Shown here in pieces: positions 7,009-64,000 of a stretch of 64,000 nucleotides of DNA. The DNA lies in IMG/VR virus record IMGVR_UViG_3300044991_001466, one strand, 5' to 3'. A program made the position numbers and the translations under genes. A model generated the notes under the pieces. That model saw only the letters and a list, made by a program, of their open reading frames with translations. It was not told the DNA's origin and did not search any database. This stretch comes from a virus. Taxonomy: Duplodnaviria; Caudoviricetes. The first letter of the stretch is position 1. The number at the start of each line of letters is the position of its first letter.

Positions 7009-10000
7009 ATGGCCTTACAAAGAATAAATTGGACACAGATTGATAGTGAGAACGTCCCTTCGGGGTCGATTATTGATTTAGGTTCATCCTCCAACCCTCT
7101 TCATGCGGTATATGCCGAAAATTTATACATTTCCGGTGTAAGTGTATCTTCATTAATTACTTATGGTACAAGTGGAACTGGTGGAAGTGGTTCTAACGGA
7201 ACGTCAGGTTCATCAGGTTCTAGTGGTGTGGGTTCTTCAGGAACGGCCGGTTCTTCAGGAACATCAGGACAAGCGGGTACTTCAGGAACTTCGGGAACTT
7301 CAGGTGAGGCGGGAACGTCAGGTTCTTCAGGTTCTAGTGGTGTTGGTTCTTCAGGTTCTTCGGGAACTTCAGGTGAGGCGGGAACGTCAGGTTCATCAGG
7401 TTCAAGTGGTGTTGGAACAAGTGGAACTTCAGGAAGTAGTGGTACATCACCATTAGGGTTTTCATCAGGAACTTCGGGAACTTCAGGTGAGGCGGGAACG
7501 TCAGGTTCTTCAGGTTCTTCGGGGTTAGCCGGAACTTCAGGCTCTTCGGGAACTTCAGGTGAGGCGGGAACGTCAGGTTCATCAGGATCTAGTGGTGTGG
7601 GTACTAGTGGAACTTCGGGTTCAAGTGGTACAGGTTCATCATTATCAATTACACAATCAGGAGGGTCAACATATACTGCGGTTTCAGGAATAACATTTAG
7701 TGGTGCAACAATCGTTGACCAAGGAAATGGTAGTATTACTGTTAATATTATTGGAGGTGGAACTTCAGGTACAGGTGGTACAGGTTCATCGGGAACTTCA
7801 GGAATTGATGGTTACGAAGGACATTTAGCAATTTGGAAATATAGTGGAAACACAAACACATCTCTTGACCCTGGTACAGGATATTTTAATTTAGATTCGG
7901 CAGCTTGGGGAACATCAACAACAAGTATCACATTAGATAATTTTGCTTATTCACCAAATACAAATTTTTCAGCTTACTTAGACGGATTAACTATAGGTAC
8001 CATTTTAAAATTGGTAAAAGTAGGTGACGCATCAACATTTAAGTTATTAAAAATTGATTTAGTATCACCACTTGATAGTGGATTTGAGAATTATACTGTT
8101 AGTCAATTATCATCAGGTGGAACAGACCCGAATGATAATGACCAATTTTTAATTATACCATTAGGTATACCAGGTTTAACGGGTACTGCCGGTACTTCGG
8201 GTTCATCAGGTTCTAGTGGTTCATCGGGTTCTAGTGGTTCTTCAGGAACGGCTGGAACTTCAGGAACTGCCGGAACATCAGGTTCTGACGGTACTTCGGG
8301 AACTAGTGGTTCTTCAGGAACAGCTGGTTCTAGTGGTTCTTCAGGTTCATCAGGAAGTACAGGTACTTCGGGAACTAGTGGTTCTGACGGTACAAGTGGC
8401 ACTTCAGGGGATTCAATTTTTACATTAACGGGTTCTAATTGGTATACTAATGAAAACGTTATAATTGACGGTAAATTAACTGTAAATGAATTGATAGTAT
8501 CATCTTCAATTACAAATATGACCGTACAATATTCTAGTGGGTCAACTAAATTTGGAGACACATCGGATGATACTCATACATTTACAGGGTCTGTTAACAT
8601 ATCAGGTTCAATAGTTGCAACTGGCACGTCATTAGTTTCAGGTTCATCACAAGTTATACTTTCAGGAGTTACAGGATTTTCAGATTTTAGTAGTTCAATT
8701 TCAACATCATTAGCGGGATTAACAACAACATTAAATGATAGTAATATTTGGCAACAAACCGGTAGTTACTATTCAGCTAATCAAAATATTCAAATTACAG
8801 GTAGTGCTGGTTCATTAATGAAATCACCTGATGGAGCGACTGACGAAAAATATGCATTGGCAATTTCACAATCAATTCATGCTAGTAATATTAATGTTGG
8901 TATACCAACTTCAAATGATTGGGGTTCGAATTTAAATGGTTCTTATTTTAATAATTTTAATAAAAACACAGACGTTTCTGAAATATTGAGATTTGTTGCG
9001 GGTTTATTATCATCTTCAGCACCTGACGCAGCACCTAATACAAAAACATATAGTACTGCAACTAGAAATATTGTTAATACAACAGCGGGTAGTGTATCAA
9101 CAACAGTACCCGGTAGTGTTCCACAAAGTTCTACTAACACAACAATTACTTATTTAAATGGTAAAGGATTTGCTAACACAGGACAACCATTATTTAGTGG
9201 AATTACTATCAATACAAACGCATCTTACGGACATACATTTACAAGTGTGTCAGCTGGGTCTACCAACGTATCATCTTCAGTTGATGCACAATTATTTGGT
9301 TTAGGTCAATTAAGTAGTGGTACACCAACAAATTTTAGAGTATCGGGTTCATTTACATTTAAATTTAAAGATAGTAGTTTAAAAACGGACACCGCAACAT
9401 CAAGTTCAAATCATTTAATAACACAAACAGGTGCTGGTACAACAAGTGGTGTTACGTTAGCAAAAATAACAACAGCAAATCCTGCGGTTATTCCAGCAGC
9501 TTATCAAGATGGTAAATTTGTTTCAGTATTTTCACCTACAATATATAATGGTGGTTTAAGTGGAATAAGTGGTAGTGGTTATTATAACATAACATCATCT
9601 ATTTCAATATCAAGTGGATCTGCAACAACATATACAACCCCTGTTACAAGTGATATTGAAGTATTCTATGCTCCTCTTTCTACTATTGCAACAAACATAC
9701 CGGCACAAACACCAACATTTAGTGGTGTAAGTGTTAATGCAATATCAGCCGTTTCTCGTTCATTGAGTGGAGCGCCTTTCTTAACAAGTGCAACATATAA
9801 TATTTCAGGTTCTGTTACAGGATTGTTTAATCCATTATATTATGCAGGCACTGGTATTGCAACAATAGGTGTTAGTGGAACAGGTTTAGTTGCAACATCT
9901 GGAACAAATACAGTATCAACATTGGGTGGTACAATACAAACATCAAATGCGGTTTATGATTCAACAGGTGTAACTGTAAGAAGTACATCTACAGTTCCTT

Positions 10001-10881
10001 ATGAAACAGATATTGTTAAAGTAAATGGACTTTATACATTTACAGCACCGGCATCATCAAACGTAGTTTCGGCTTCGGGTTCGACAACACCAACAACATT
10101 TACATTAACAGTTAACGGTTTAAATAAAGCTGGTACAACAAGTACAAATACGTCAACAGTATCATATCATACTGCGGGAAATTTTAGTCAACTAAGTGCG
10201 AGTGGTAGTTTGGCCTATTATGGTAGAGTACAAGGAACAGATTCAGGAACAAACTCGGGAGCGTCAAACTTAGAACCATTTACTGGTGAAAGTAATAGAA
10301 TACAATTAAGTGATAATATATTATCATTCACAGGAACAGCTTGGGATACGGCATTTGGTTTATATAATTTAGGCGAAAAAGATTTACAAGTTAAACCTGG
10401 TTTCTTAGTTAAACCTGGCGGAGCTTACAAGTATTGGTTAGAAAATCCAAGTGATACAAGTGATTACAAATATTATGTTAGAAAAGTTACAACCAACGCA
10501 GGTGTAAAGGGAACAATGACTTTAAACATGGGATCTACCCTTGTGAATTGGAATTCAACAACAAGTAATTCTGTTTCATGTTTAATTTTATTTGAATCAA
10601 CAAAGAGTGGTTTATATACACCACCAAGATTTTTTGACCCATCAAACGCTTTAACAAACTTAGGTACGATTACTGCAAATACTGACGGAACAAATCCATT
10701 TGGTTCAAGTATATATGTAAATCGTTGTAACACAAGTAGTGTTTCGTCAACAACATATACAATTCCATTAATTAGTGGTGACGGTATGATACTAAATGCA
10801 ACATATACGAATATTTATGTAATTGTAAGATACAAAGGAGACCCAACACCAATAACTTCCATAACAACAACTTTTAGTTAA
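7009..10881 (+). CDS. Large virion structural/fibre protein with Gly-X-Y (GTS/GSS) blocks
   Basis: 1290 aa; repeat blocks about 7165-7641 and 8182-8409; GSTKFGDTSDDTHTFTGSVNI module shared with the next genes; Ser/Thr-rich C-terminal half. Confidence 0.8.
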   Translation: MALQRINWTQIDSENVPSGSIIDLGSSSNPLHAVYAENLYISGVSVSSLITYGTSGTGGSGSNGTSGSSGSSGVGSSGTAGSSGTSGQAGTSGTSGTSGEAGTSGSSGSSGVGSSGSSGTSGEAGTSGSSGSSGVGTSGTSGSSGTSPLGFSSGTSGTSGEAGTSGSSGSSGLAGTSGSSGTSGEAGTSGSSGSSGVGTSGTSGSSGTGSSLSITQSGGSTYTAVSGITFSGATIVDQGNGSITVNIIGGGTSGTGGTGSSGTSGIDGYEGHLAIWKYSGNTNTSLDPGTGYFNLDSAAWGTSTTSITLDNFAYSPNTNFSAYLDGLTIGTILKLVKVGDASTFKLLKIDLVSPLDSGFENYTVSQLSSGGTDPNDNDQFLIIPLGIPGLTGTAGTSGSSGSSGSSGSSGSSGTAGTSGTAGTSGSDGTSGTSGSSGTAGSSGSSGSSGSTGTSGTSGSDGTSGTSGDSIFTLTGSNWYTNENVIIDGKLTVNELIVSSSITNMTVQYSSGSTKFGDTSDDTHTFTGSVNISGSIVATGTSLVSGSSQVILSGVTGFSDFSSSISTSLAGLTTTLNDSNIWQQTGSYYSANQNIQITGSAGSLMKSPDGATDEKYALAISQSIHASNINVGIPTSNDWGSNLNGSYFNNFNKNTDVSEILRFVAGLLSSSAPDAAPNTKTYSTATRNIVNTTAGSVSTTVPGSVPQSSTNTTITYLNGKGFANTGQPLFSGITINTNASYGHTFTSVSAGSTNVSSSVDAQLFGLGQLSSGTPTNFRVSGSFTFKFKDSSLKTDTATSSSNHLITQTGAGTTSGVTLAKITTANPAVIPAAYQDGKFVSVFSPTIYNGGLSGISGSGYYNITSSISISSGSATTYTTPVTSDIEVFYAPLSTIATNIPAQTPTFSGVSVNAISAVSRSLSGAPFLTSATYNISGSVTGLFNPLYYAGTGIATIGVSGTGLVATSGTNTVSTLGGTIQTSNAVYDSTGVTVRSTSTVPYETDIVKVNGLYTFTAPASSNVVSASGSTTPTTFTLTVNGLNKAGTTSTNTSTVSYHTAGNFSQLSASGSLAYYGRVQGTDSGTNSGASNLEPFTGESNRIQLSDNILSFTGTAWDTAFGLYNLGEKDLQVKPGFLVKPGGAYKYWLENPSDTSDYKYYVRKVTTNAGVKGTMTLNMGSTLVNWNSTTSNSVSCLILFESTKSGLYTPPRFFDPSNALTNLGTITANTDGTNPFGSSIYVNRCNTSSVSSTTYTIPLISGDGMILNATYTNIYVIVRYKGDPTPITSITTTFS
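7291..7580 (+). repeat. Four exact copies of a 35-nt unit
   Basis: tcgggaacttcaggtgaggcgggaacgtcaggttc at 7291, 7360, 7474 and 7546. Confidence 0.9.
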
Positions 10882-10890: not shown

Positions 10891-12309
10891 ATGTCAATAG
10901 ATAATAGTAAAAAATCCCCAAGGTTACTCCAAAGTAGAAGATATACACATGATACTTTTACTGATGCTCAAGAGGCTTTTACTTCAGTATTAGACATTAA
11001 TGCAAATGAAATTTATGTTGATCAAGATTTAATACCTGTAAGTAGTGTTCCTTTTGGAACAAGTGGAGATAATTTATCAATTTATAGTTCTGGTGGTCAA
11101 GATGTAATGAAATATTACTATCGTTACAAGATGACTAAATCCAGTACGAATACTGAGGTTTGGTTTTTTACAACAGGAACGACAGCGGGAATTGATGCTC
11201 AGTTAATTGATTCTAACCAACAAAAAAACTTCATATCACCAAAATATTCAATCCCCTCACTATCTACTGCAAACGCGGAAGACAGTCCAGCGGGTTATGG
11301 TGTTAAAGTTTTTGTTTCAACGAACTCATCTTCACCATCTGCGGGTGATCAAATATCATCAACAAAATTTGTTTTTGATTATAAGACAGGAGTTTTACAA
11401 TTTGTTTTAACTGCAGATAAACCAACGGATAGTCAATATGTTTATATATCTGCATATCAATATGTCGGTAGAACATTAAAAGATTCATTAAACAATTTAG
11501 GTAGTGCGGGAATATTCCAACAAACAGGTTCATATTATTCAACTATTAATGATATCAAAATCACAGGGTCACTTGTTACTACAGGTGATTTAACTGTTGA
11601 AGGTACATTAACTGCGAAGACGTTAATTATTTCGTCTTCAGTAACAAACATGGTTGTTCAATACGCTAGTGGATCAACAGCGTTTGGTGACACCGTAAAT
11701 GACAATCATAATTTCACAGGTTCGGTTAATATCACTGGTTCATTAACAATTAATGGACAATCATTTAGTGCTGCAACATCAGGCACAAGTGGTTCATCAG
11801 GAACGGCAGGTTCATCAGGAACAGCAGGTTCATCGGGTACTAGTGGTTCTGATGGTTCATCAGGTTCTAGTGGAAGTTCAGGTAGTAACGGTTCATCGGG
11901 TTCTAGCGGTACTGCGGGTACATCTGGTTCAAGCGGTATTAGTGGGGTTAACGGAACAGATGGTTCTTCAGGTTCATCAGGAGATTCAATATTTGCACAA
12001 ACGGGTTCTGCCCCTTATGATTTTTGGGCAACATCTAAAAATGTACAAATCACCGGTTCATTAATCACCTCAGGTTCTGTTATTATAAGGGGTGATTTAA
12101 CGGTTGAAGGTACCACAACATTAAATCAAAAAAATGATTTAAATAGAGAATCTTTAATAGTATCAGGAGCGTTAAATATTGTTGAGAGAAGAGTTAATAC
12201 AACGTTAACATCGGCCTCATTATACTTTAATAATGAACTATCAATCATTAATAACACAATATCAAATCTAACATTCTCTGGAACATTTATTGACTCAGGA
12301 GAATTTTAA
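10891..12309 (+). CDS. Virion structural/fibre protein with a Gly-X-Y block
   Basis: 472 aa; repeat block 11782-11982; GSTAFGDTVNDNHNFTGSVNI module; ends FIDSGEF. Confidence 0.8.
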   Translation: MSIDNSKKSPRLLQSRRYTHDTFTDAQEAFTSVLDINANEIYVDQDLIPVSSVPFGTSGDNLSIYSSGGQDVMKYYYRYKMTKSSTNTEVWFFTTGTTAGIDAQLIDSNQQKNFISPKYSIPSLSTANAEDSPAGYGVKVFVSTNSSSPSAGDQISSTKFVFDYKTGVLQFVLTADKPTDSQYVYISAYQYVGRTLKDSLNNLGSAGIFQQTGSYYSTINDIKITGSLVTTGDLTVEGTLTAKTLIISSSVTNMVVQYASGSTAFGDTVNDNHNFTGSVNITGSLTINGQSFSAATSGTSGSSGTAGSSGTAGSSGTSGSDGSSGSSGSSGSNGSSGSSGTAGTSGSSGISGVNGTDGSSGSSGDSIFAQTGSAPYDFWATSKNVQITGSLITSGSVIIRGDLTVEGTTTLNQKNDLNRESLIVSGALNIVERRVNTTLTSASLYFNNELSIINNTISNLTFSGTFIDSGEF

Positions 12310-12388: not shown

Positions 12389-15300
12389 ATGGCACAAATT
12401 ATTAAACACAGGAGGGGTCAGTTATCCGGAATAAAAGCTTTAACCGCAAACAATGGTGAAATTATTGTTGCGTCGGGTTCAATTTCAGATTTACAAGGAC
12501 CATTTATTTTCATCGGTTCACCCGTATTACTGGATAATGGAACCGCTGGAGCCTTTAGTCCGGCCTCTAAAATATATACAGGAGCAGCTGCACCAACAAT
12601 ATTAAATGCGAGTTATGGTACTGCTTTAGATGGTACACCATTTTATGCTAGTGGTGACAAATCGTACTATATTTTAAATAATAGTGGTGCTGGTGGAAAT
12701 ACTAAATTAGATTTAACAGGTAACATTGAAGGTAACACCATTAGTGGAGTTACTATTACCACATTAACAAGTACTAAGGGTACATTCAGTAGTCAAGTAA
12801 ATGTTAGTGGGTCAATTAATGTTACAGGAAGTTTATTTATAAACGGTTCTGAATATACATCAAACTCTTCAGGTACTTCAGGTTCTTCAGGGTCTAGTGG
12901 CTCATCAGGAACTGCTGGTACATCAGGTTCTTCAGGTTCTAGTGGTTCATCAGGAACATCAGGTTCTTCAGGGTCAGACGGTTCTTCAGGAACTTCAGGT
13001 TCTAGTGGTTCAGCTGGTACTTCAGGTTCTAGTGGTTCTTCAGGAACGTCAGGTTCTAGTGGTTCTTCAGGAACTGCAGGAACATCAGGTTCTTCAGGGT
13101 CAGATGGTTCATCAGGTTCTTCAGGAACGTCAGGTTCTAGTGGTTCTTCAGGAACTGCAGGAACATCAGGTTCTTCAGGGTCAGATGGTTCATCAGGTTC
13201 ATCAGGAACAAGTGGATCATCAGGAACATCGGGTTCTAGTGGTTCTTCAGGAACGGCTGGTACTTCAGGAACATCAGGTTCTTCAGGTTCAGATGGTTCA
13301 TCAGGATCTTCAGGTTCATCAGGAACCGCTGGTACTTCAGGAACATCAGGTTCATCAGGTTCTTCAGGGTCAGATGGTTCATCAGGTTCTAGTGGTTCTG
13401 CGGGTACGTCAGGTTCATCAGGGTCATCAGGAACTTCAGGTTCATCAGGTTCATCAGGGTCAGACGGTTCTTCAGGAACATCGGGATCATCAGGTTCATC
13501 AGGAACTTCAGGTTCAAGTGGTTCATCAGGAACTTCAGGTTCATCGGGTTCTTCAGGTTCTAATGGTACAGATGGTACTTCAGGAGATAGTTTATTCGCA
13601 TTAACTGGTTCAATATGGTCTACCCAAAATCCAGTAAGAATAGTAGGAGCTTTAACCGCTTCAATGGTATCATCTTCATTCATAGGCGATGGTGCGGGTT
13701 TATATAATATTCCAGCAAGTGGTGTTACAGGTTTAGAATTAAATAAAATTGTAAACGGTGCGGTAAGTGCTTCAGTTTTATCTGACGGAACATTCAGAGT
13801 AAACGGTGATACATTTATTAATGGTACCATCACGGCAAGACAATTAAATATTGATTATGTAACTTCATCAATTTTATACACATCAGGTTCAACTAAGTTT
13901 GGTGATACATTTGATGATTTACATGAATTTACAGGAAGTGTAAACATAACAGGTTCTTTATTCTTAAATGGTGTAACAGTTGGAACGGGTAAACTAAATA
14001 CAACTGATTTTAACTCATATACATCTTCAGTAAATTCACAATTTGCAGGAACATCATCATTTGCGATTTCTTCATCATATGCTGTTTACGCGGAGAATGC
14101 AGTTATTGTTTCAGGTCAAACTAAAACATTAACAGTAACTACTCCATCAACAACATGGTCATTTACACACAATTTGGGTTATAAATTCCCAGCGATTAAT
14201 GTTTTTGATGGTAATGATAATGTAATAGTTCCTTCAGGAATTAAAGTAAAAAATAGTAATCTATTAGAGGTATATTTTAATAGTGTTGAAACGGGTACTG
14301 TAATTGCCACTATCGGTGGTAATGGTTCTTCTGGAACTTCAGGTTCAGGTGGTTCTTCTGGAACTTCAGGTTCTAGTGGTTCATCAGGAACATCAGGTTC
14401 TTCAGGGTCAGACGGTTCATCAGGAACTTCAGGTTCTAGTGGTTCTTCAGGAACTTCAGGTTCTAGCGGTTCTTCAGGAACATCAGGTTCCTCAGGTTCA
14501 TCAGGAACTTCAGGTTCTAGTGGTTCATCAGGTTCTAATGGTACAGATGGTTCTTCAGGTTCTAGTGGTTCTTCAGGAACGGCTGGTACATCAGGAACTT
14601 CAGGTTCATCAGGTTCAGATGGTACTTCAGGAACATCAGGTTCTTCAGGAACTTCAGGTTCTAGTGGTTCATCAGGAACATCAGGTTCAAGTGGTACTGC
14701 GGGTACTTCAGGTTCTTCAGGGTCAGATGGTTCTAGCGGTTCTTCAGGAACAAGTGGTTCATCAGGTTCTTCAGGAACAAGTGGTTCATCAGGTTCTTCA
14801 GGAACTTCAGGCTCAAGTGGTTCTTCAGGAACTTCAGGTTCAGATGGTACTTCAGGAACATCAGGTACTTCAGGTTCGTCAGGTTCTTCAGGAACTGCGG
14901 GAACTTCAGGTTCTAGTGGTTCATCAGGAACTGCAGGTACATCAGGTTCTTCGGGTTCAGATGGTTCTTCAGGTACTTCAGGTTCTAGTGGTTCATCAGG
15001 AACATCAGGTTCATCAGGAACAGCGGGTACTTCAGGTTCTTCAGGTTCTTCAGGAACGAGTGGTTCTTCAGGTTCTTCAGGGTCTAGCGGTTCATCAGGT
15101 TCTTCAGGAGATAGTATATTCGCTTTAACAGGTTCAGTTTGGGAGACTAATTTAAATGTTAAGTTCAACCAATCAGTAACCTCATCTATATTCACAGGTT
15201 CATTTAAAGGTGATGGTGCAGGACTTTATAACATACCAGCAAGTGGTGTTACAGGATTACAATTAGACAAAATTGCAAGTGGAGCGGTAACAGCTTCAGT

Positions 15301-16017: not shown

Positions 16018-16048
16018 AAAAGGAGACCCTAAAAAGTCTCCTTTTTTT
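16018..16048 (+). terminator. Intrinsic terminator
   Basis: AAAAGGAGAC-cctaaaaa-GTCTCCTTTT followed by Ts. Confidence 0.85.
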
Positions 16049-52016: not shown

Positions 52017-52024
52017 TTAGTATT

Positions 52025-54718: not shown

Positions 54719-55018
54719 ATGAAATTAGATTTTAAAGAAATATCAACGGCTTGGTATAATAAACTTATACATTCTAATGAATTAAAAAAATTAGCTGATG
54801 ATAGATTTGATATTTGTTTAGAATGTCCGTCTAAAAAAGAAATTTTCAAAGGTAAACAATGGTCTCTCAGGTGTGGAGAATGTGGGTGCCCTTTAGCAGG
54901 TAAAGTATATACATCTAATACATATTTGGATAAAAACGGATCATGTCCATTAGAAAAGTGGAAAGAAGTTGAGATTGAATATTTAAAAAATTTTAAAAAA
55001 ATGAAAACTTTTATATAA
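54719..55018 (+). CDS. Small Cys-rich metal-binding protein (DUF6171-like)
   Basis: RFDICLECP...CGECGCPL..K...CPLEKW; ends KTFI. Confidence 0.7.
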   Translation: MKLDFKEISTAWYNKLIHSNELKKLADDRFDICLECPSKKEIFKGKQWSLRCGECGCPLAGKVYTSNTYLDKNGSCPLEKWKEVEIEYLKNFKKMKTFI

Positions 55019-55019
55019 A

Positions 55020-55703
55020 GTGTCTTATTTAATTAATAATGAACTTATTTGGGTTTCTATTCCAAAATGTGCAAGTTACTCTATTGAACGAGCACTTAGA
55101 AATTCAAAACTAAAATTAGATACCTACGACCCAAATATTATTATAGACGAGCACCTTCACGTCCCATTAACTGAGTGTTTATCACTATGGGGAAACAAAG
55201 AAACTGTTTGTATAACCAGAGATTATGTGCATAGATGGATGAGCTCTTTAAATTTTATTTGGGATAAAATAGAATTTGAAAGTGATTATACCCTTATTCG
55301 TAAATGGGAAGATGTTGATAATGAATTTTTATATAAAATGTTTGATACCAAGTTTCTCAATGATTTACATTCATTTGACGGCAATGATTTAGAAACAAAA
55401 AATTGTTTTTTAAAATTAGTAAAAGAAAAATACGACATTTTAAAAAAAATGCCATTTATAATGATAACCTTAGTTTCCCCAAACTTTTTTAAATCCAATA
55501 GAAAATGTACATATGAGTTTGACATTAAAGAAATAGATAAATTTGTTGATTTTATTGAAGATAGATTTGGTGAAAGATTAATTATAGAGAGCACTAACCA
55601 ATCTACAAAAAGACCAAATAAAATTATAATAAATGATGAATTAAAATCATTTATTTTAGAAAATTTTGAAAATAGATTTAAAAAAAGAAATCAATTAATA
55701 TAG
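55020..55703 (+). CDS. Sulfotransferase-like protein (Sulfotransfer_2-like)
   Basis: WVSIPKCASYS PSB-like loop, TRDYVHRWMS 3'-phosphate-binding-like motif; GTG start; ends NQLI. Confidence 0.7.
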   Translation: MSYLINNELIWVSIPKCASYSIERALRNSKLKLDTYDPNIIIDEHLHVPLTECLSLWGNKETVCITRDYVHRWMSSLNFIWDKIEFESDYTLIRKWEDVDNEFLYKMFDTKFLNDLHSFDGNDLETKNCFLKLVKEKYDILKKMPFIMITLVSPNFFKSNRKCTYEFDIKEIDKFVDFIEDRFGERLIIESTNQSTKRPNKIIINDELKSFILENFENRFKKRNQLI

Positions 55704-55706
55704 TAT

Positions 55707-56180
55707 ATGCAAATATATAAAAACATATTAACAAATGATTTTTGTGATATTTTAATAGAAAAAATTAAGAATGAATGTGTATTAAGTGAATCTCATAAAA
55801 AAGGGTGGTATGTTTGGTTAATTTGGGGACAACAACCCAGTCAACCACTAAGTAGAGAAAAGTGGAATGAAGAAATCTATAATATGGTAACTGATGAGTT
55901 AAATAGATGTAATTTTCCTAAACATAAAACAATGTGGCTACAAATGACAGAATATAAAGATGGTAGGTGGTTACGAAGACATGTAGATGGTGCAGGAAAT
56001 AAAACAATAATAATTTTGTTATCCAATGAATTTGTGGGTGGAGATACATATATAAATGATAGTGTTGTAAATTTAAAAAAGGGCGATGGTGTTATATTTG
56101 ATGGGGGTTATCAATATCATGAAGTAACACCAGTAACAGAAGGAACACGATACGCTTTAAATTTTTGGTTATATAAATAA
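55707..56180 (+). CDS. 2OG-Fe(II) oxygenase
   Basis: Y..G..L.RHVD, LLSNEFVGG, GDGVIF, YHEVTPVTEGTRYAL. Confidence 0.9.
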   Translation: MQIYKNILTNDFCDILIEKIKNECVLSESHKKGWYVWLIWGQQPSQPLSREKWNEEIYNMVTDELNRCNFPKHKTMWLQMTEYKDGRWLRRHVDGAGNKTIIILLSNEFVGGDTYINDSVVNLKKGDGVIFDGGYQYHEVTPVTEGTRYALNFWLYK

Positions 56181-56189
56181 CAATATAAT

Positions 56190-57233
56190 ATGGTAGATTT
56201 AAAGAATTATGTTTGTAGTGTTCCTTTTAATTCATTAGAAATACATAATAATGTTTGTTTTGTTTGTTGTCCATCTTGGTTACCAAATAAGATTGAAATA
56301 TCAGAAGTACCACTAAAGGATATGTGGAATAGTGAACCAATCGTTGATATTAGAAATTCTATATTAGATGGTTCATTTAAATATTGTAATAAAGAACTTT
56401 GTCCTTATTTAAGTAAATTAATAAACTATGGTGTGACATCTGGTCCAGTCAGACTGAAATCAGATTCAAATATTAATAATCCAATTATTGAAAATAATAC
56501 ACCCGATTATTTGGTAATGAATTTTGATAGAACTTGTAATTACAAATGTCCATCATGTAGAGTTGATTTAATTGTTGAAAATAGTGAAGGGATAAAAAGA
56601 GTTGAAAAAACAATTGAAGATATTGATAAATATTATTCAGCAAATGTAAAAACTTTATACATAACAGGTTCTGGAGACCCATTTGTTTCAGTCGGGTTTA
56701 GAAATTATTTAAGAAATTTTAATCCAAAAAAATATCCAAATTTAAAATCAATACACTTACATACCAATGCCTCAATGTGGAATAAAGAAATGTGGGATAG
56801 TATGCCAAATATTCACAAATATGTCGGTACCTGTGAAATCAGTATAGATGCAGGAACAAAAGACACATATGAAAATAAAACAAGATTAGGTGGTAATTGG
56901 GAAAATTTATTGAGTAATTTAAAATTTATTAGTACCATACCGAATATTAATGTAAAAACTTCCTTTGTTGTACAAGATAGTAACTATACTGAAATGGAAA
57001 CATTTTATAATTTAATGTATTCTATTTTTGGTAAAAAAGTAAATGTGTTTTTTGGTAAAATAACAAATTGGGGTACATTTTCAGAGGGTGAATTCAAATT
57101 TAAACAGGTATGGGATACCGAACACCCAGAACACCAATTATTTAAAAAAGAATTTAATAAGGTATGGAAAAACACAAATCTATTTCATAATCTATATGAG
57201 TTTATTGAGAGCACTAATAAAACATTGATATAA
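56190..57233 (+). CDS. Radical SAM protein with N-terminal SPASM-like cluster
   Basis: CSVPF...CC..W...C...CP; CNYKCPSC; TGSGDPF; ends KTLI. Confidence 0.88.
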   Translation: MVDLKNYVCSVPFNSLEIHNNVCFVCCPSWLPNKIEISEVPLKDMWNSEPIVDIRNSILDGSFKYCNKELCPYLSKLINYGVTSGPVRLKSDSNINNPIIENNTPDYLVMNFDRTCNYKCPSCRVDLIVENSEGIKRVEKTIEDIDKYYSANVKTLYITGSGDPFVSVGFRNYLRNFNPKKYPNLKSIHLHTNASMWNKEMWDSMPNIHKYVGTCEISIDAGTKDTYENKTRLGGNWENLLSNLKFISTIPNINVKTSFVVQDSNYTEMETFYNLMYSIFGKKVNVFFGKITNWGTFSEGEFKFKQVWDTEHPEHQLFKKEFNKVWKNTNLFHNLYEFIESTNKTLI

Positions 57234-57247
57234 TTTAACATAATAAA

Positions 57248-57817
57248 ATGGTTATTACAATAATCGCCGAACCAAGAAGTGGGTCAACAAATTTAGCAGA
57301 TTATTTTAAATCAAATAAAGATTTTACTATTTTACAAGAACCATTAAATAAATATGGAAAATCGTATCAAAAAAATAATCCAATTAATAAATGGACTTAT
57401 AATACAAAACACTTATTAATTAAGGAAATATATGACCCAAATAAAAACTTAAAAGAATTAATACAATTTTCAGATAAAATAATTATTCTTTATAGAGAAA
57501 ATAAAAATGAACAATTAGAATCTTGGTTAGTTGCAAAGGTAACCAATAATTGGCGGGGTAAATGGGTAAATAGTAAAATTCGTATACCTAACAAAGAATT
57601 AAAAATTCAGTTTTTTAATAAAATGGTTAATGAGTTTGAAATAGAATATAGATTAAATAATGATATGTTTAAAATATCATATGAAGAACTTTATTACAAG
57701 AATGGTTTTGAAAAAATAGTGAATTATCTTAATATTGATAGTGTTAAGAATATTGATTTTCCATATGGTCAAAAATATAGGTTGGACAAAATAGAAATAA
57801 ATAAAACTTTAATATGA
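57248..57817 (+). CDS. Sulfotransferase-like P-loop protein (Stf0-like)
   Basis: IAEPRSGST, EPLN, LYREN..EQLES, ISYEEL; ends KTLI. Confidence 0.7.
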   Translation: MVITIIAEPRSGSTNLADYFKSNKDFTILQEPLNKYGKSYQKNNPINKWTYNTKHLLIKEIYDPNKNLKELIQFSDKIIILYRENKNEQLESWLVAKVTNNWRGKWVNSKIRIPNKELKIQFFNKMVNEFEIEYRLNNDMFKISYEELYYKNGFEKIVNYLNIDSVKNIDFPYGQKYRLDKIEINKTLI

Positions 57818-58518
57818 TAAGGATATATTACCACATATATGTCATTGATGGCGTTGAATCTATAATAAATGAACAACTGACATTAATAAAAAAATACATT
57901 AATCAACCATATTCATTAACTATTGGCATCTCAGTATCAGAAAATAATAATTCAGTAGACGATATGATTAAATTAATTTATGGGTATGATTCAAAAATTA
58001 TAATCGGTGATACTAAATTAATGGGTAACGAGTTTATAACATTAAATTTAATAGAAAGAGATAAATCATCATTTGATGACACTGACTACATTTTGTATTT
58101 ACACACAAAGGGAGCTTCTAAACAAATGAATTCCGAATCTATCCGATGGAGAAATGTAATGCAATTACATAATATTCAATATATTGATAACGTATTTGGA
58201 ATTTTGGATAATGAAGTTTTTAACACATATGGTTTTTTATTAGAAGTAGTAAGTAACCCTACAAATATAATGTACTCTGGTAATTTTTGGTGGATGACCG
58301 GACAATACGCTAAAACAATAGACATAAGTAATGTTGATATTACAAATAGATGTAATGCAGAGTTACAATATATTCAAATGGGAACGGATTGGAAACCCTA
58401 TTCAATAATTAGAAAGGGAGATAATTGGAAACCTTATTCATACTTTATTAAGGACAAAGGGGGGGGGATAGAAAAACGTAATATTAACACAAAATTAAGT
58501 TTTAATAAATTAATATAA
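57814..58518 (+). CDS. Putative glycosyltransferase-like protein
   Basis: YYHI, YILYLHTKG, YSGNFWW, R..AE..I motifs; ends NKLI. Confidence 0.5.
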   Translation: MIRIYYHIYVIDGVESIINEQLTLIKKYINQPYSLTIGISVSENNNSVDDMIKLIYGYDSKIIIGDTKLMGNEFITLNLIERDKSSFDDTDYILYLHTKGASKQMNSESIRWRNVMQLHNIQYIDNVFGILDNEVFNTYGFLLEVVSNPTNIMYSGNFWWMTGQYAKTIDISNVDITNRCNAELQYIQMGTDWKPYSIIRKGDNWKPYSYFIKDKGGGIEKRNINTKLSFNKLI

Positions 58519-58528
58519 TTATGAATAT

Positions 58529-59332
58529 ATGGACCCGTTAAAATATTGGACGTTAGATGGATTTGAAATATCATCATTTAAGTTTAATTTAAATGAAAGA
58601 AAGGGAAAGACGTATAAAACATGCGGTTCCGATGGTACTGGCTTGTGTAGCTATGCCTATAATGAATTAGGATTTAGGGGAGATAGTGTAAAAAAAGAGG
58701 GATTTAAAGTAATGTCATTAGGTTGTTCTCATACCGAAGGTGTCGGTGTTAATTACAATGATATGTGGTCAACACGATTTACAAATCGTATACCCAATGG
58801 TGTTAATATGAATTTTGGTACAGGTGGTAGAAGTAATGATTTTATTACTAGATGTCTATTAACATATTACGATGTGGTAAAACCTGATTTGGTATTAATA
58901 ATGTATACATCACCATTAAGAAGAGAAATATACACAAAAGATGGTAATATAGAACCATTTATTCCCGCTCGTTCATGGGGATATATGGGTGAAACTGAAG
59001 ACGGTAAACAAACACAAAGTTATTTAACTGAATTACAAAATGATAATGAAGATTTAATTAATTGGTATAAAAATCATCAACTAATAAAATTATTCTTAGA
59101 AACTAAAAATTGTAATTGGATTTGGAATGGGTCGTTTGGTATACCAAGTGAATTTAAAGAGCCTAACAGATTTGATGGTGAATATCAAATTTTTATCGAT
59201 AAGGGTGTTGAAGGGGGACATGCTGGCCCCGAACAAAATAAAAGTTATGCAAATAAATTATACGACTTCATAACTGAAAATTTCCCAAATTACATAAATG
59301 TTTTATCAAAAAATAAACAAAGTTTGATTTGA
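58529..59332 (+). CDS. SGNH/GDSL-like protein
   Basis: YNELGFRG, LGCSHTEGVG, NFGTGGRSN, GHAGP; ends QSLI. Confidence 0.7.
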   Translation: MDPLKYWTLDGFEISSFKFNLNERKGKTYKTCGSDGTGLCSYAYNELGFRGDSVKKEGFKVMSLGCSHTEGVGVNYNDMWSTRFTNRIPNGVNMNFGTGGRSNDFITRCLLTYYDVVKPDLVLIMYTSPLRREIYTKDGNIEPFIPARSWGYMGETEDGKQTQSYLTELQNDNEDLINWYKNHQLIKLFLETKNCNWIWNGSFGIPSEFKEPNRFDGEYQIFIDKGVEGGHAGPEQNKSYANKLYDFITENFPNYINVLSKNKQSLI

Positions 59333-59364: not shown

Positions 59365-62100
59365 ATGAAAATATTAGCTCACACATGTTTTATTGGAGTA
59401 ACAGGATATGCTAATCACGCAAAGTCCTTTTTTTGTGCTCTGAACAAATACCACACAGTAAAGGTTAGAAATTCAACGGTAGGTAGTGGATGGAAAGGGA
59501 TGAATGACACTCCACACGATAATGAGACCTATATAACCAACGAAATGAAGGATATGTTAATCCTTCAAACCCTTAACAATTCGGACGGTAGTAGGTCAGA
59601 TTACCCCATTTATGGGTATGATGGTGGATTTAAACCGGATGTTCACATTGTTTTGGTGGACACTAATAACTATTATTTCTATGAAAATTATGAGGGATAT
59701 AAAATAGCATATAATGTTTGGGAATCAACACGTTATCCTGATGATTTCTTTCAAAGATTACATTACTTTGATGAAGTATGGGTACCAACCCAATGGCAAT
59801 TTGATTGTTTAGTTGAACAGGGTTACCCATCACATAAAATATCAATCGTTCCTGAGGGAGTTGATGTGGAGACATTTAAACCGTTAACTGAATTCCCGAA
59901 AAGAGATAAGAAAAGATTTGTGTTGTTTGGTAGATGGGAGTGGAGAAAAGGAACCACTGAAATATTACAAGCATTTGCAGAAGAGTTCAAAGACCAAGAT
60001 GATATTGAGTTAATCGCATCAGTTGAGAACCCATATCCATCGGATGGTCTTAAGACCACTGAAGAAAGAATTAAACATTACGGTATCGACACCAAGAACA
60101 TTAAGTTTGTTAAGTTTCCATTACAAACCGAATATGTTAATTATTTACAAACGGCCCATGCTTTTATTTCTTGTGCAAGAAGTGAAGGTTGGAATTTACC
60201 ATTGATTGAGGCCATGGCTTGTGGAACACCATCTTTATATTCAAATTGGGGAGGACAATTACAATTTACATTAGATAAAGGTGTACCGGTTTCAATTAAA
60301 GGATTAACTCCCGCTAATCACGAACACAAAGATTTCCCTGGTGAATATTGTGAACCTGATTGGGAAGATTTAAGATTTAAAATGCGTCAAGCTTATGATT
60401 ATGATACTGCAATGTGGATTACATCAAACGCAGACTCAAAAAGAATTCATAAAGATTTTAATTGGGATACAATAGCGAAAGGTGCGTGTAAAATCCTTGA
60501 AAATAAGTTTGATGATTTTGCTTTCATAACAACAGGCAACATTGGTTATATGCCGGTGATTGAAAAGTTAGTTCAATCACTATTAGAATTTTCTAAACGT
60601 AAGATTATAGTATATGGTATCGATTGTGAGGTTCCATTTGATTATCCAAATATCATTAAAAGAACTATAACAACACAAAAGATATCAGAACATGATAAAT
60701 GGTATTGGAAACAAATGGCGTGTATTGAATCAGTTAATGAAGGTTTTGATAACTACGTTTGGATGGATGGAGATGTTGTTGTCAACTATAACGTTGACGA
60801 TATTAAAAAATATTTCTCAGAAATTGAAAACTACCCAATATCCGATATACACGTACAAGAAGAATTTTTTGGTTGGTATGATGATGGAAAAAATTCGCAA
60901 CTATTCAACGAACAAGTTGCAAATGATTGGGGGGTAGAAAAACAACAACCATATATGCATGTTTGTATGTATGTCTATAATAAAGAATGTAAATGGTGGT
61001 TTGAAGAAATTATAAGTCATTACGTGAAAGTTATGAAGGATGGAGGTAAAGATTACAAACGTCTATACCTATGGAATGATGAAGGTATTGATAATGCGAT
61101 GAGATGGAAGTATAATTTTAAAAAACATTTACCACTATCGAACTTTGATACATCATCCTATGATGGTGATGATGGAATGACAGATGAAACACAACATCAT
61201 TTCTTAAAGTTTTGGAACGAGGAAGGTCCACAGAATTTCAATAGAGTATTTGGATATCAAGCAATACCTAAAGATAAAAATCAAATTTTATATTTCCACG
61301 GTAATAAGAATGCCGATATGTCTGATTTCATGATGAATTTTATCAAAATGAAACGTGACGATAGTTTCTATAAATCAGAACAATTCTACACATCATTAGA
61401 TGTTAATACATATAAGTTAGAGAACTTAGGTGACATCAAGGATGTACAAGGAGGTACTATGGAAATTGCCGATAAGTATGGATGGGCTCGAGCAATTTAT
61501 CATGAGATTTTTAATTTACACGATTACTATAAAGGTGGTAATGAAAGAAGAATAAACGAAGGTGATGTTGTAGTTGATTTAGGTGGTAATATGGGAATCT
61601 TTAATAGATGGGCTTATCATCAAGGGGCAAGTAAAGTAATTTCATTTGAACCGGATAGAAGATATTTTAAATTACTTTCACTTAATGCAGACCCACGTTC
61701 AATATTGTTCAACGCAGCCGTTGCTCACGAAATGGGAGAACTTAATTTATTTGAGAGTACTCACTTAGGTGGATCAAATGTTTTTGGAATTGAAGGTCAG
61801 GATGGGTATAGTGTTAAAACATACACTTTAGATTATCTTTTTGAAAGTGGTTTAATTGACCATATTGATTTTCTTAAAGTTGATATTGAAGGTGCGGAAT
61901 ATGCGGCATTTGCAGGTATCAGTGATGAGAACTTACAAAAAGTTAAAACCATTGCTATGGAATATCATAATAGTCATTTTAATTTTGATGATGAATTAAG
62001 ATCAAACTTCATTAAAAAAATGAACGGATTAGGGTTTAATTCATACCTATTATTTATGGGAAACAATAACGCTTTACAAATGATATATTTTTGGAAATGA
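59365..62100 (+). CDS. Three-domain fusion: GT4 glycosyltransferase + GT-A-like domain + FkbM methyltransferase
   Basis: GRWEWRKG and RSEGWNLPLIEAMACGTP (GT4); WMDGD...DEG...FHGNK (GT-A-like); VVVDLGGNMG..SFEP..IDFLKVDIEGAEY (FkbM). Confidence 0.85.
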   Translation: MKILAHTCFIGVTGYANHAKSFFCALNKYHTVKVRNSTVGSGWKGMNDTPHDNETYITNEMKDMLILQTLNNSDGSRSDYPIYGYDGGFKPDVHIVLVDTNNYYFYENYEGYKIAYNVWESTRYPDDFFQRLHYFDEVWVPTQWQFDCLVEQGYPSHKISIVPEGVDVETFKPLTEFPKRDKKRFVLFGRWEWRKGTTEILQAFAEEFKDQDDIELIASVENPYPSDGLKTTEERIKHYGIDTKNIKFVKFPLQTEYVNYLQTAHAFISCARSEGWNLPLIEAMACGTPSLYSNWGGQLQFTLDKGVPVSIKGLTPANHEHKDFPGEYCEPDWEDLRFKMRQAYDYDTAMWITSNADSKRIHKDFNWDTIAKGACKILENKFDDFAFITTGNIGYMPVIEKLVQSLLEFSKRKIIVYGIDCEVPFDYPNIIKRTITTQKISEHDKWYWKQMACIESVNEGFDNYVWMDGDVVVNYNVDDIKKYFSEIENYPISDIHVQEEFFGWYDDGKNSQLFNEQVANDWGVEKQQPYMHVCMYVYNKECKWWFEEIISHYVKVMKDGGKDYKRLYLWNDEGIDNAMRWKYNFKKHLPLSNFDTSSYDGDDGMTDETQHHFLKFWNEEGPQNFNRVFGYQAIPKDKNQILYFHGNKNADMSDFMMNFIKMKRDDSFYKSEQFYTSLDVNTYKLENLGDIKDVQGGTMEIADKYGWARAIYHEIFNLHDYYKGGNERRINEGDVVVDLGGNMGIFNRWAYHQGASKVISFEPDRRYFKLLSLNADPRSILFNAAVAHEMGELNLFESTHLGGSNVFGIEGQDGYSVKTYTLDYLFESGLIDHIDFLKVDIEGAEYAAFAGISDENLQKVKTIAMEYHNSHFNFDDELRSNFIKKMNGLGFNSYLLFMGNNNALQMIYFWK

Positions 62101-62759
62101 GTACATTAAATAATTTGGCTAAAATACACGGAACGGATAAGTCTTCAGATAATCACAATTATTGTGTTAAATATGAAAAGTATTTACCATTTAACAGATA
62201 CGATAAGTTAAACATATTGGAAATTGGTGTCTTAGATGGTAAATCACTATTAACTTGGAAGGATTATTTTTATCGTTCTAATATTTTAGGTGTTGACATT
62301 AATCCTGATTGTAAAAAATATGAAGAACCACGAATCTCTATCGAAATTGGTTCGCAGGATGATGGTAAATTCTTATCAAGAACTTGGCAACAATATGGCC
62401 CATTTGATATGATATTAGATGATGGGTCACATATGAATGAACACGTAATTTATTCATTTGAACATTTATTCGGTTCAGTTAAATCGGGTGGTGTGTACGT
62501 AATTGAGGACGTTGCAACCTCATACTTCCCTTGGTACGGTGGGGGTTTAAATGACCCTAAGAGTATGATGGAATACTTCAAGAAATTGACTGACGACATT
62601 AACTTTAGAGGTGTAGAGAACTTAGATGACCAAGATGCGGTGTGGGATAGGCGTGAAGATAAATTAATACCCTATTCAAGTAAAGTACAACCTGATTGTA
62701 GAACTGATATAGAATCAATAACCTTCCTTAACGGAATTATAATAATAACAAAAAGATAA
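62097..62759 (+). CDS. Class I SAM-dependent (sugar O-)methyltransferase
   Basis: GTDK..HNY, ILEIGV..GKSL..W..YF, GVDIN, DMILDDGSH, GGVYVIEDV; probable ATG 62097 (ATGA overlap). Confidence 0.88.
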   Translation: MSTLNNLAKIHGTDKSSDNHNYCVKYEKYLPFNRYDKLNILEIGVLDGKSLLTWKDYFYRSNILGVDINPDCKKYEEPRISIEIGSQDDGKFLSRTWQQYGPFDMILDDGSHMNEHVIYSFEHLFGSVKSGGVYVIEDVATSYFPWYGGGLNDPKSMMEYFKKLTDDINFRGVENLDDQDAVWDRREDKLIPYSSKVQPDCRTDIESITFLNGIIIITKR

Positions 62760-64000
62760 TGGGATATACACAATTTACTGAAGATGTGTTTGTGGTCGAT
62801 TGCTGGCCAGATAATAAAGATAAAGAAAACGTTTTAAAGAAATTACTAACAAGTTTAAAGGTTTATAATTGTCCAATTATATTATGTGGACATTATCCTG
62901 TAAATCCTGATATTCAAAAATTGGCAGATTATTACATTTACGATTCAAATAACGATGTTTTATTGGAGAAAGATTTTGAAGAGTATGGAGTTAATAGTGA
63001 TAGATGGACTGACATGGGAAACTATAAAATAACCAATAAAGTTGAGTTTCATCATGATTATGCCATTTGGTTAACAATGAAAAACGCATTTAATTTGGTT
63101 AAACAATTAGGAAAAAAATATATTCATTTCTTGGAATACGATAACTTACCCGACGAAACTCAATATCGTCAGGCGTTTATGGAATATATGAGAAGTAACG
63201 ATGCGGTTGTGTACGAATATTCGGAAGGCTCAACCAAAGAAGAAAACCCATACAGTGCAACCTATCTATTTTCAATAAAAACTGATATCGCAATCGAATT
63301 AGTAAGTAAAATTAACAGTAAAGAAGAATACTTTAAAAATAAACCAAATAGATGGCAGTTAGAAAAGGTATTTTATCAAACATTAAAAAGTATCACTAAT
63401 AATATTTTTGTAAGTAAGTACATCGCTAACGATAACGAACTAAACATATTTGCCGCATGGAATAGAAATGGGATTACAAAAAATGGTGCTCGTTTACAAA
63501 CCTATTTAGGTGTGGACGATTTTAATCAACTATATGTTCATTTCATTTCAGGATTTTCAGAGAAACCCGCTAACTTAGATTATTTGGTTGAAATTAATTA
63601 CGGGAGTTTTAAAAAATTCTTAACGGTTAAGAAGGGACAATACATTTTAGAGAAAATTGATGAATATCGTCAAGGACAATCTTTTCAAGTTTTCTATAGA
63701 GGAGTTGAAATTTTTAACCAAGAATTAACAAATGATGTTGAGGAATTTAAAAGAAAAAATAAAGTAATCAAACGTAATAGTGGAATTAATAATAAGAAAA
63801 ATATCATAGCACATTTTGTTGATGGTCCATTTTTAGAAATTAAAGAAGACGGTGATAATTTATACAACGTACAATTCATAAATAAGAAAAACAATAAAAT
63901 TGAATTTGAAATTAATTTAAAGAGTAATCATTGGTGTAGGTCTGCAAAAAAATACTACGTTGATTGGTTAGTTAAGATTAAAGGAATTGATAATGATTTT
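62759..64000 (+). CDS. 3'-truncated multidomain protein; its last 60 or so residues resemble the N-terminal domain of TibC/AAH autotransporter heptosyltransferases (not in ORF track)
   Basis: Hand translation is open for 414 codons to the edge; HFVDGPFLEI...YNVQFIN...NHWCRSAKKYYVDWLVKI parallels TibC YDFNDGARV...WHVRLLD...GWVTSSKKYFVRFRIQV as recalled from memory. Confidence 0.6.
   Translation, partial: MGYTQFTEDVFVVDCWPDNKDKENVLKKLLTSLKVYNCPIILCGHYPVNPDIQKLADYYIYDSNNDVLLEKDFEEYGVNSDRWTDMGNYKITNKVEFHHDYAIWLTMKNAFNLVKQLGKKYIHFLEYDNLPDETQYRQAFMEYMRSNDAVVYEYSEGSTKEENPYSATYLFSIKTDIAIELVSKINSKEEYFKNKPNRWQLEKVFYQTLKSITNNIFVSKYIANDNELNIFAAWNRNGITKNGARLQTYLGVDDFNQLYVHFISGFSEKPANLDYLVEINYGSFKKFLTVKKGQYILEKIDEYRQGQSFQVFYRGVEIFNQELTNDVEEFKRKNKVIKRNSGINNKKNIIAHFVDGPFLEIKEDGDNLYNVQFINKKNNKIEFEINLKSNHWCRSAKKYYVDWLVKIKGIDNDF

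Follow-up and report, generated by a model that had tools for sequence, protein, structure and literature searches.

Enzymes of the TibC family are cytoplasmic and hyper-heptosylate serines of repetitive adhesins (PMC4358343). In the E. coli pairs TibC/TibA and Aah/AIDA-I (BAHT, TIGR04414), a cytoplasmic glycosyltransferase (GT) of the GT-B fold with an iron-finger region is encoded beside a repetitive, Ser-rich surface protein. In the exosporium of Bacillus and Clostridioides, Gly-X-Thr filaments are O-glycosylated by an adjacently encoded transferase (BclA3/SgtA; PMC7157674), and in mycobacteriophages virion proteins are modified in the cytoplasm by GTs whose genes adjoin structural genes (Freeman et al. 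2023, cited in PMC12619734 and PMC12801897). Virion glycosylation in phages is documented only for the mycobacteriophages, on capsids and tail tubes. Here we describe 64,000 nt of the Caudoviricetes record IMGVR_UViG_3300044991_001466 (hereafter the window), which carries four collagen-like fibre genes and an island of GT and sugar-modifying genes, and ends within a gene that orthology assigns to the TibC/Aah type. We propose that this enzyme probably glycosylates the Ser/Thr-rich stalks of the phage's own fibres.

The window (GC about 0.29, densely coding, mostly on the plus strand) corresponds to the tail-fibre module, interrupted by a glycan-building island, of an uncultured jumbo phage from freshwater. 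The assignment to a freshwater jumbo phage is based on the recurrence of window DNA in many lake-water metagenomes and on the size of its close IMG/VR relatives, which measure 200-335 kb. Among 50,697 phage records, megablast with 21 kb of the window and tblastn with one of its GT7 proteins both gave 0 matches, and the GT7 enzyme is found in no cultured phage there. The 59 open reading frames (ORFs) of the window were scanned with Pfam; NCBIfam, ESM-Atlas neighbours and two structure models were used in addition. For comparison, three sets were drawn from IMG/VR: a GT7-anchored set (GT7 domain profile; at least 446 stretches matched, 75 loci kept), a TibC-anchored set (79 loci from a scan with the TibC-like domain) and a window-lineage set obtained with a conserved fibre domain, which recovers close relatives.

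The sequence family, the iron-finger region and the position beside a repetitive gene, as described above for TibC and Aah, recur in the phage orthologue, with three differences. Its neighbour is a collagen-like fibre gene, with none of the autotransporter genes that characterize BAHT loci nearby; the enzyme has an extra N-terminal domain of ~360 aa; and its gene shares a cassette with a Methyltransf_24 gene and one for a GT4/FkbM fusion. The BclA repeats, in contrast, contain proline, are served by another transferase family and decorate a spore surface rather than a virion. In the mycobacteriophages, as summarized in the citing papers, C-terminal tails of capsid and tail-tube subunits are modified and two or three transferases suffice, whereas the presumed targets in the window phage are collagen-like fibres, and about 45 genes are present, including candidates for sulfation and carbamoylation. 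What would be new here is the use of BAHT-type hyperglycosylation on collagen-like fibres of a phage, in combination with a large island of decorating enzymes. Among the papers searched, none joins heptosyltransferase, collagen-like protein and phage.

A predicted TibC-type gene and its cassette

The last genes of the island are the following:

59365-62759, plus strand: GT4/FkbM-methyltransferase fusion (59365, 911 aa), then Methyltransf_24 (62091); upstream part of the conserved cassette
62759-64000, plus strand: first 413 aa of a TibC/Aah-type protein of ~707 aa, assigned by orthology, with ~44 residues of the TibC domain in the window

The orthologue of 62759 in the relative G005, a 100% complete record, is 707 aa long, and the window part is 77% identical to it over all 413 residues. 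Residues 370-700 of this orthologue match TibC (4RAP) with an E value of 2.8e-52 and score 284 bits against TIGR04414 (cut-off 200). Alignment with TibC shows that the iron-finger cysteines of the orthologue, which stand in the part of the protein beyond the window, are kept in C-x2-C, W-C-P and F-E-C. TIGR04414 is above its cut-off in three of four relatives (G003, G004 and G005; 264-294 bits), 26-40 kb downstream of GT7, and the island of G005 is gene-for-gene syntenic with that of the window at 46-96% identity. For the middle part of 59365 (residues ~366-745) no solved structural relative was found.

A fibre gene lies directly 3' of the TibC-type gene in three relatives, which places the island within the fibre module. 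In G005 this fibre has 675 aa, of which 48% are Ser, Thr or Gly, and 39 Gly-X-Y (G-X-Y) triplets. The islands of close relatives are not identical in gene content: at the place where the window has a 2OG-Fe(II) oxygenase (55707-56180), that of G005 carries a further TibC-like gene that stands alone (376 aa, L219:4437-5567).

Pairing of TibC-type and collagen-like genes

A G-X-Y run of at least 8 triplets lies within 6 kb in 52 of the 79 TibC-anchored loci, compared with 11 of the 75 GT7-anchored loci, a fibre-rich control, in which runs were sought within 10 kb (Fisher p 6e-11, for loci related by descent). In most cases the run starts 0.3-0.8 kb downstream of the TibC-type gene on the same strand, and its X and Y positions lack Pro and are 87-100% Ser/Thr. 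Clustering at 85% identity gives 45 clusters with enough flank; a collagen-like gene is found directly downstream of the TibC-type gene in 25 of them, and in 23 of 25 clusters that are at least 60% identical to the G005 domain and form the clade of the window. Upstream of the TibC-type gene, 61 of the 79 loci have a homologue of 59365 and 37 have a second Methyltransf_24 gene. The conserved cassette consists of GT4/FkbM, methyltransferase, TibC-type enzyme and collagen-like fibre.

Proline-free collagen-like fibres

The fibre genes and their associated genes are arranged as follows:

7009-10881, plus strand: fibre 1, 1290 aa, 222 G-X-Y residues, Pro-free and S/T-rich; Pfam Collagen
10891-12309, plus strand: fibre 2, 472 aa, 69 G-X-Y residues; Pfam Collagen
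12389-15997, plus strand: fibre 3, 1202 aa, G-X-Y runs of 240 + 267 residues; Pfam Collagen, E 1e-68
16148-19294, plus strand: fibre 4, 1048 aa, three G-X-Y runs; Pfam Collagen; C-terminal Peptidase_S74 intramolecular chaperone
19294-24195, plus strand: six fibre-associated proteins with a common N-terminal MA(T/N)L..T motif, three of them with LamG/ConA-like domains

Counted as uninterrupted in-frame runs of at least 5 triplets, the four fibres contain 222 + 69 + 507 + 177 = 975 G-X-Y residues, and the longest run comprises 267 residues (89 triplets). This bears out the estimate in the initial annotation of about 980 codons of Ser/Thr-Gly repeat in four fibre genes. In the repeats X is S or T, Y is mostly S, there is no Pro and charged residues are almost absent. 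Long uninterrupted Gly-X-Y runs, by which collagen-like proteins are recognized, are present; proline and hydroxyproline (Hyp) are absent from them. From their sequences the fibres appear to be trimeric, with long (Gly-Ser/Thr-Ser)n collagen-type stalks for which a triple helix is predicted. S74 intramolecular chaperones are characteristic of trimeric spikes and fibres. Fibres 3 and 4 have an N-terminal motif in common with cyanophage proteins annotated as collagen-like tail proteins. Because the repeats of the S-CBS2 collagen-like protein are of the ordinary GPQ/GEQ type, the all-hydroxyl, Pro-free composition is a special feature of the window fibres.

The six fibre-associated genes, among them 20951 and 22534 with LamG/ConA-like domains, have homologues in cyanophage S-PM2 and a Flavobacterium phage that are annotated as virion structural proteins. 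They stand between the fibres and the island, which had been described as following the fibres directly.

It had further been suggested that the Ser-Gly dipeptides resemble the attachment sites of proteoglycans. They are a by-product of the in-frame G-X-Y triplets, and this framing is not supported: acidic Ser-Gly motifs are absent, as is a xylosyltransferase, and the Pfam scan of the 59 ORFs contains no GT14, GT31, GT43, GT47 or GT64 and no GT2-type synthase of a glycosaminoglycan (GAG) system.

Upstream of fibre 4 lie a terminator (16018-16045) and, at 16073, the motif GTATTTATGTA. No convincing terminator was found between this promoter-like site and 37498, a point in favour of the glycosylation proposed below. 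There are three exact copies of the motif GTATTTAT(G/A)TA, all of them between genes: before fibre 1 (within 6931-6991), before fibre 4 (within 16018-16083) and before gene 53078 (53052-53062). The motif is a candidate late promoter, and the copies at fibres 1 and 4 come after a strong terminator hairpin. With one mismatch, GTATTTATRTA has 12 sites against 12.9 expected by chance and is not enriched, and sigma-70 scans of the AT-rich window gave no information. Upstream of fibre 1, a small ORF with a CGHC motif (6655-6930; glutaredoxin/NrdH-like) directly follows a thioredoxin gene (6347-6652).

Proposed glycosylation of the fibres

We hypothesize that the TibC/Aah-type C-terminal half of the 62759 product would O-glycosylate stalk Ser/Thr in the cytoplasm. 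The sugar would probably be heptose from the ADP-heptose pool of the host, and the GT4/FkbM fusion (59365) and Methyltransf_24 (62091) would extend and O-methylate this first sugar. On balance we consider this set of steps rather probable. The initial annotation had likewise proposed that the phage glycosylates its own fibres, an idea that gains support from the TibC-type orthology at the island end and from the TibC/collagen pairing.

Whether, in addition, the rest of the island elaborates the same glycan is for us an even call. In that case it would supply GDP-linked 6-deoxy or heptose-type sugars, to be added by the GT7, GT2 and GT10-like transferases, and carbamoyl, sulfate, methyl and acyl groups would be attached to the glycan by further enzymes. 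A role of the other ~35 kb in the same glycan is plausible on four grounds: their position, a gene order that stays constant in the lineage, the missing exporters, and inserts of lectin-like type, which fit a multivalent acceptor. The fibres as substrate, the identity of the sugar and the whole island as one pathway are what we infer from these patterns.

The benefit to the phage would likely be stabilization of the proline-free triple helix, plus shielding or adhesion. Glycosylated threonine can reportedly stabilize collagen helices without hydroxyproline, as in the cuticle collagen of Riftia, and proline-free Gly-Thr/Ser-Ser helices would for that reason need sugars. The most far-reaching form of the proposal is a self-contained cytoplasmic pathway with TibC-type priming and lectin-insert GT7, in which heptose/deoxy-sugar glycans bearing methyl, carbamoyl and sulfate groups would take over the role of hydroxyproline on Pro-free helices and give the virion a proteoglycan-like, strongly anionic coat; we regard it as speculative and, taken as a whole, rather improbable.

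Absence of export machinery

Proteins of the island have at most one hydrophobic segment each. Around GT7 in the 75 phage loci, 0 of 1106 ORFs have at least 4 hydrophobic segments, and no Wzx, Wzy, initiating transferase or ABC permease was found. In contrast, 46 of 587 ORFs reach this number in 45 bacterial loci with a GT7 homologue. A surface polysaccharide cluster of the Wzx/Wzy/ABC type (a complete O-antigen cluster) is rejected, the required polytopic membrane proteins being absent from the window and from the 75 loci. Since the islands encode no flippase, polymerase, initiating transferase or exporter, their product is either finished in the cytoplasm, where virions assemble, or wholly dependent on host export.

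Composition of the island

The island extends over about 40 kb (24210-64000) and starts after the six fibre-associated genes. Upstream of the cassette it contains:

24210-24923, plus strand: 237-aa protein without Pfam/NCBIfam family; homologues 43-66% identical in close relatives
24910-26564, plus strand: Methyltransf_24 (24910), then Glyco_tranf_2_4 (25713), both by Pfam; start of the conserved core module
26587-31404, plus strand: three GT7 genes (26587, 28748, 29992) with Glyco_transf_7N + 7C and a LamG/pentraxin-like jelly roll inside the catalytic domain; 192-aa ORF at 27972
31401-34798, plus strand: two twitch radical SAM genes (NF033640, by NCBIfam) around a free LamG-like protein (32761)
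34801-36081, plus strand: GT-B, GT10-like, first of four paralogues (fold model and motif)
36083-37498, plus strand: SGNH-like protein (GDSF motif) and 145-aa protein (motif only)
37455-44869, minus strand: sugar-nucleotide block, made up of the next eight genes
37455-38003, minus strand: thiamine pyrophosphate (TPP) E1 beta-like, partner of the alpha-like gene about 5 kb away
38000, minus strand: SGNH-like (motif)
38837, minus strand: GDP-fucose-synthase-like short-chain dehydrogenase/reductase (SDR; Pfam/PDB comparison)
39832-41478, minus strand: SDR (GDP-fucose-synthase-like) with a C-terminal 2OG-Fe(II) oxygenase, an unusual fusion
41475, minus strand: GT10-like GT-B (fold model and motif)
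42722-43354, minus strand: TPP E1 alpha-like, partner of the beta-like 37455
43351, minus strand: RmlC-like epimerase (cupin; Pfam)
43898, minus strand: SDR (PDB 6VO6, E 3e-102)
44945-47448, plus strand: two GT10-like GT-B (44945, 46192; fold model and motif)
47448-49499, plus strand: two SGNH-like proteins and a DUF5672 protein; the SGNH Pfam match of 48155 is below cut-off
49503-51167, plus strand: NolO/NodU-type carbamoyltransferase (Pfam E 1e-65 and 1e-60)
51168-52836, plus strand: SGNH-like (51168), adenylylsulfate (APS)-kinase-like P-loop protein (52025) and HxGH nucleotidyltransferase (52456), by Pfam/NCBIfam/motif
55020-59332, plus strand: Sulfotransfer_2-like (55020), 2OG-Fe(II) (55707), radical SAM (56190), Sulfotransfer_3/NodH-like (57248), an ORF (57814) and SGNH-like (58529)

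The enzyme inventory in the initial annotation is confirmed in its essentials. Its count of at least ten GT-like genes agrees with the ten for which we have evidence (25713, 26587, 28748, 29992, 34801, 41475, 44945, 46192, 59365 and, by orthology, 62759), and its nucleotide-sugar enzymes, carbamoyltransferase and methyltransferases all have Pfam matches (the SDRs, the cupin, 49503, 24910, 62091 and FkbM in 59365). The APS kinase has a 68-bit match at 52025, but the protein is short (144 aa). The two sulfotransferase-like proteins (55020 and 57248) have feature and structure neighbours in the ESM-Atlas, but no Pfam match at E < 0.01. All six SGNH-like proteins have the N-terminal motif, but only 48155 has a Pfam match, below the cut-off; in the other five, G(D/C)S(F/W/H) was recognized by eye. 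Three radical SAM genes, the most distant one at 56190, and two 2OG-Fe(II) domains were absent from that inventory.

The GT7 proteins carry the motifs of the family, namely DxD (DVD), FGG, WGWG-EDDD and a C-terminal GLN-L-Y, which are invariant in 9 and 33 sequences. A model of 26587 (pLDDT 79) superposes on 4IRQ, 4LW3 and 6FWU at 1.7-2.2 Å root-mean-square deviation (rmsd) with 35-40% identity, the Foldseek match to 4IRQ having an E value of 1.6e-14, an rmsd of 1.7 Å and 36% identity. Motifs and fold are thus those of the animal beta4GalT enzymes, to whose beta4GalT1 and beta4GalT7 members the catalytic domains are 35-40% identical over about 150 residues. The phage proteins differ from these by a LamG/pentraxin-like insert of ~200-250 aa and by being soluble, without a membrane anchor. 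The LamG-like domain is an insert within the catalytic domain, because the C-terminal GT7 segment resumes after it, and in the model it matches pentraxin/LamG jelly rolls. The comparison with beta4GalT7, the linker enzyme, stands at the level of the GT7 family: human and Drosophila beta4GalT7 and beta4GalT1 were matched equally well, so that specificity of the T7 and T1 types is indistinguishable, and no xylosyltransferase or GAG polymerase accompanies the enzymes in the island.

GT7-related domains also occur in many bacterial metagenome-assembled genomes (Chlamydiae, Proteobacteria, Chitinophagaceae and others). The best 'bacterial' match (59% identity) is a 6.5-kb contig (L078) binned as Candidatus Pelagibacter, which is probably a mis-binned phage fragment; together with L098 it may hint at SAR11/LD12-type hosts for marine relatives.

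The four GT-B paralogues (34801, 41475, 44945 and 46192), of about 420 aa each, have no Pfam match, and a profile search of PDB sequences with them gave nothing useful. A GT10-like (fucosyltransferase-like) donor-binding motif, ..SE....TEK..K.., is kept in all four and in 13 homologues. The model matches GT-B proteins only (OtsA, T4 BGT, H. pylori FucT 2NZW, SdgB and GtfA; TM-scores 0.3-0.46), of which SdgB and GtfA are protein O-transferases.

Three SDRs, one RmlC-like cupin and a split TPP E1-like pair make up the nucleotide-sugar enzymes. The structure closest to 43898, 6VO6, is one that we take to be Cj1427, and the split TPP E1-like pair is reminiscent of the enzymes that introduce two-carbon branches in pathways for branched-chain sugars. 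In the capsular heptose modification of C. jejuni, the Cj1427 dehydrogenase, Cj1430 epimerase and Cj1428 reductase (PMC10680097) are of the same enzyme types as the window block (SDR, RmlC-like cupin and GDP-fucose-synthase-like reductases). Their product, in contrast, feeds the capsule, and no GDP-heptose synthesis genes were seen in the window. As the fibre repeats offer neither Pro nor Lys, the 2OG-Fe(II) oxygenases (the 39832 fusion and the free 55707) may act on sugars.

The scans of window ORFs revealed no ATP sulfurylase. A Nod-factor-like lipo-oligosaccharide was rejected as product, since this enzyme and a NodC-like membrane GT2 are both missing and only decorator-like enzymes are present, namely the carbamoyltransferase, the APS-kinase-like protein and sulfotransferase-like proteins whose structural neighbours include the NodH cluster. 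The protein at 52456 is a 126-aa nucleotidyltransferase with HxGH and ISGTxIR motifs and weak matches to NMN-adenylyltransferase-like proteins. A small ORF with paired CxxC motifs (54719-55019, zinc-ribbon-like) lies in the gap between an ATP-grasp gene and the sulfotransferase-like gene.

The GT7 core module in other phages

In about 45 of the 75 GT7 loci the gene order is a giant Ser/Thr/Gly-rich protein (1000-2400 aa), a ~330-aa GT4-like enzyme, Methyltransf_24, GT2, two or three GT7 and radical SAM; Methyltransf_24 is found in 46 and Glyco_tranf_2_4 in 49 of the 75. The giant proteins are taken as fibres because many end in an S74 chaperone. Across loci, the median identical fraction is 0.39 for the enzymes and 0.10 for the adjacent fibres.

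The ~330-aa enzyme, which has the motif EPFGY..F.AV.YGKLPI, stands between the S74 fibre and the methyltransferase in 45 loci (among L002 and L006-L077, marine and other relatives). This GT4-type enzyme could be the priming transferase of marine-type systems. It is absent from the window, and as a relative of TibC it was rejected at profile level (hhalign probability 0.1). Ralstonia phage RsoM2USA was likewise rejected as an example of the same arrangement, having only radical SAM and carbamoyltransferase genes in common with the window.

Within the window lineage, Methyltransf_24, GT2 and GT7 genes are present in every close relative with enough flank. Where these relatives have G-X-Y repeats, the repeats are all Pro-free and Ser/Thr-rich and amount to 8 to 650 triplets per 20 kb. 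Two close relatives (L187 and L191) have no G-X-Y within reach, and a third (G002) has the GT7 genes and no G-X-Y run near its fibres. It had been expected that the total G-X-Y length would co-vary with the presence of the island. This was not observed, as the island is constant while repeat length varies freely: with the GT7 module unchanged, nearby G-X-Y ranges from 0 to 650 triplets, and 64 of the 75 GT7 loci are without a run.

Alternative explanations

Several observations weigh against glycosylation of the fibres by the island. The 413 residues of 62759 in the window have no NCBIfam match (only ~44 domain residues precede base 64000); the TibC domain lies beyond the window end, and its presence in the window genome is predicted from orthology. 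The substrates known for TibC and Aah are beta-helical autotransporters, not collagen helices, and TibC uses ADP-heptose, while the sugar pathway of the island looks GDP-linked. The 64 loci without a nearby G-X-Y run have the GT7/Methyltransf_24/GT2/radical-SAM core nonetheless, and a TibC homologue is found in 0 of 4 long GT7 records (45-83% complete by CheckV). With G-X-Y rare in the GT7 loci and TibC absent from these four records, the core module is tied to fibre genes generally rather than to collagen repeats; as the core occurs without either, most of the island may lie outside the TibC pathway. None of the RNA runs that were searched matched the window sequence. Host O-antigen-modifying genes adjoin tailspike genes in some temperate phages (P22, epsilon15). 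Finally, marine myophages have GTs in a fibre-rich 'host recognition cluster', and these GTs have been read as modifiers of the host O-chain (PMC7029224).

These last two points lead to the alternative that we take most seriously, although we consider it unlikely: that the island remodels the host surface (lipopolysaccharide, capsule or another envelope glycan), by which receptors would be masked, superinfection blocked or the sticking of progeny to debris reduced. The initial annotation had put modification of the host surface on a par with fibre glycosylation, and for most of the island it may still apply. It accounts for the adjacency to fibres, as receptor recognition and receptor modification would evolve together. 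The clusters of pelagimyophages and cyanomyophages for which this reading was published likewise combine hypervariable fibres with many GTs and sugar enzymes, including a Nol-like carbamoyltransferase (PMC7029224), and carbamoyltransferase 49503 is related to these cyanophage and pelagiphage enzymes (about 31% identity). The LPS-gene clusters of cyanophages are a comparable case. TibC-type enzymes and Pro-free collagen repeats are not described for the published clusters. The occurrence of the GT7 core without G-X-Y or TibC, the chromosomal position of bacterial GT7 homologues among membrane proteins and the resemblance of the sugar enzymes to a capsule heptose pathway point the same way. Adjacency alone decides neither for host O-chain modification nor for fibre glycosylation. 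However, no flippase, polymerase, ligase, initiating phosphoglycosyl transferase or ABC exporter is encoded in the 40 kb or in the 75 loci. At the island end, next to another fibre gene, stands a member of a family that glycosylates protein serines. Moreover, the conservation of the enzymes and the hypervariability of the fibres are opposite to what matched receptors and modifiers predict.

We consider it quite unlikely that two systems lie side by side, such that the cassette from 59365 to the TibC-type gene would serve the fibres and the GT7/radical-SAM/GDP-sugar/sulfation part would make another product, be it a host-surface glycan, a free decorated oligosaccharide or a natural-product-like molecule. 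The modules are independent elsewhere, since GT7 loci occur without TibC and TibC-anchored loci mostly contain the cassette genes only, and the twitch radical SAM, carbamoyltransferase, ATP-grasp and sulfotransferase genes are also typical of secondary-metabolite pathways. In the window lineage, however, the two modules are always enclosed by fibre genes and keep one order, the island encodes no exporter that could release a free product, and the lectin-like GT7 insert suggests a polymeric, multivalent acceptor.

Hypermodification of phage DNA with sugars is extremely improbable: phage GTs acting on hydroxymethylated bases are well known (a recent study of them is cited in PMC12619734) and T4 beta-glucosyltransferase is among the GT-B fold matches, but more than ten transferases with sulfation, carbamoylation and a deoxy-sugar pathway surpass every known DNA modification by far, the island lies within a fibre module, the TibC-type enzyme is a protein transferase, and no base-hydroxymethylase was seen in the window ORF scans.

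Significance

If glycosylation of the fibres is correct, widespread uncultured large phages of freshwater, and probably of the sea, carry complex and possibly sulfated glycans on the organelles with which they recognize their hosts, and fibre-receptor binding, phage stability and phage adhesion would have to be seen in a new light. It would also provide a function for many 'LPS-like' (lipopolysaccharide-like) genes in host-recognition clusters, to which modification of the host surface is currently ascribed, and a natural system in which glycosylation stabilizes a proline-free collagen helix.

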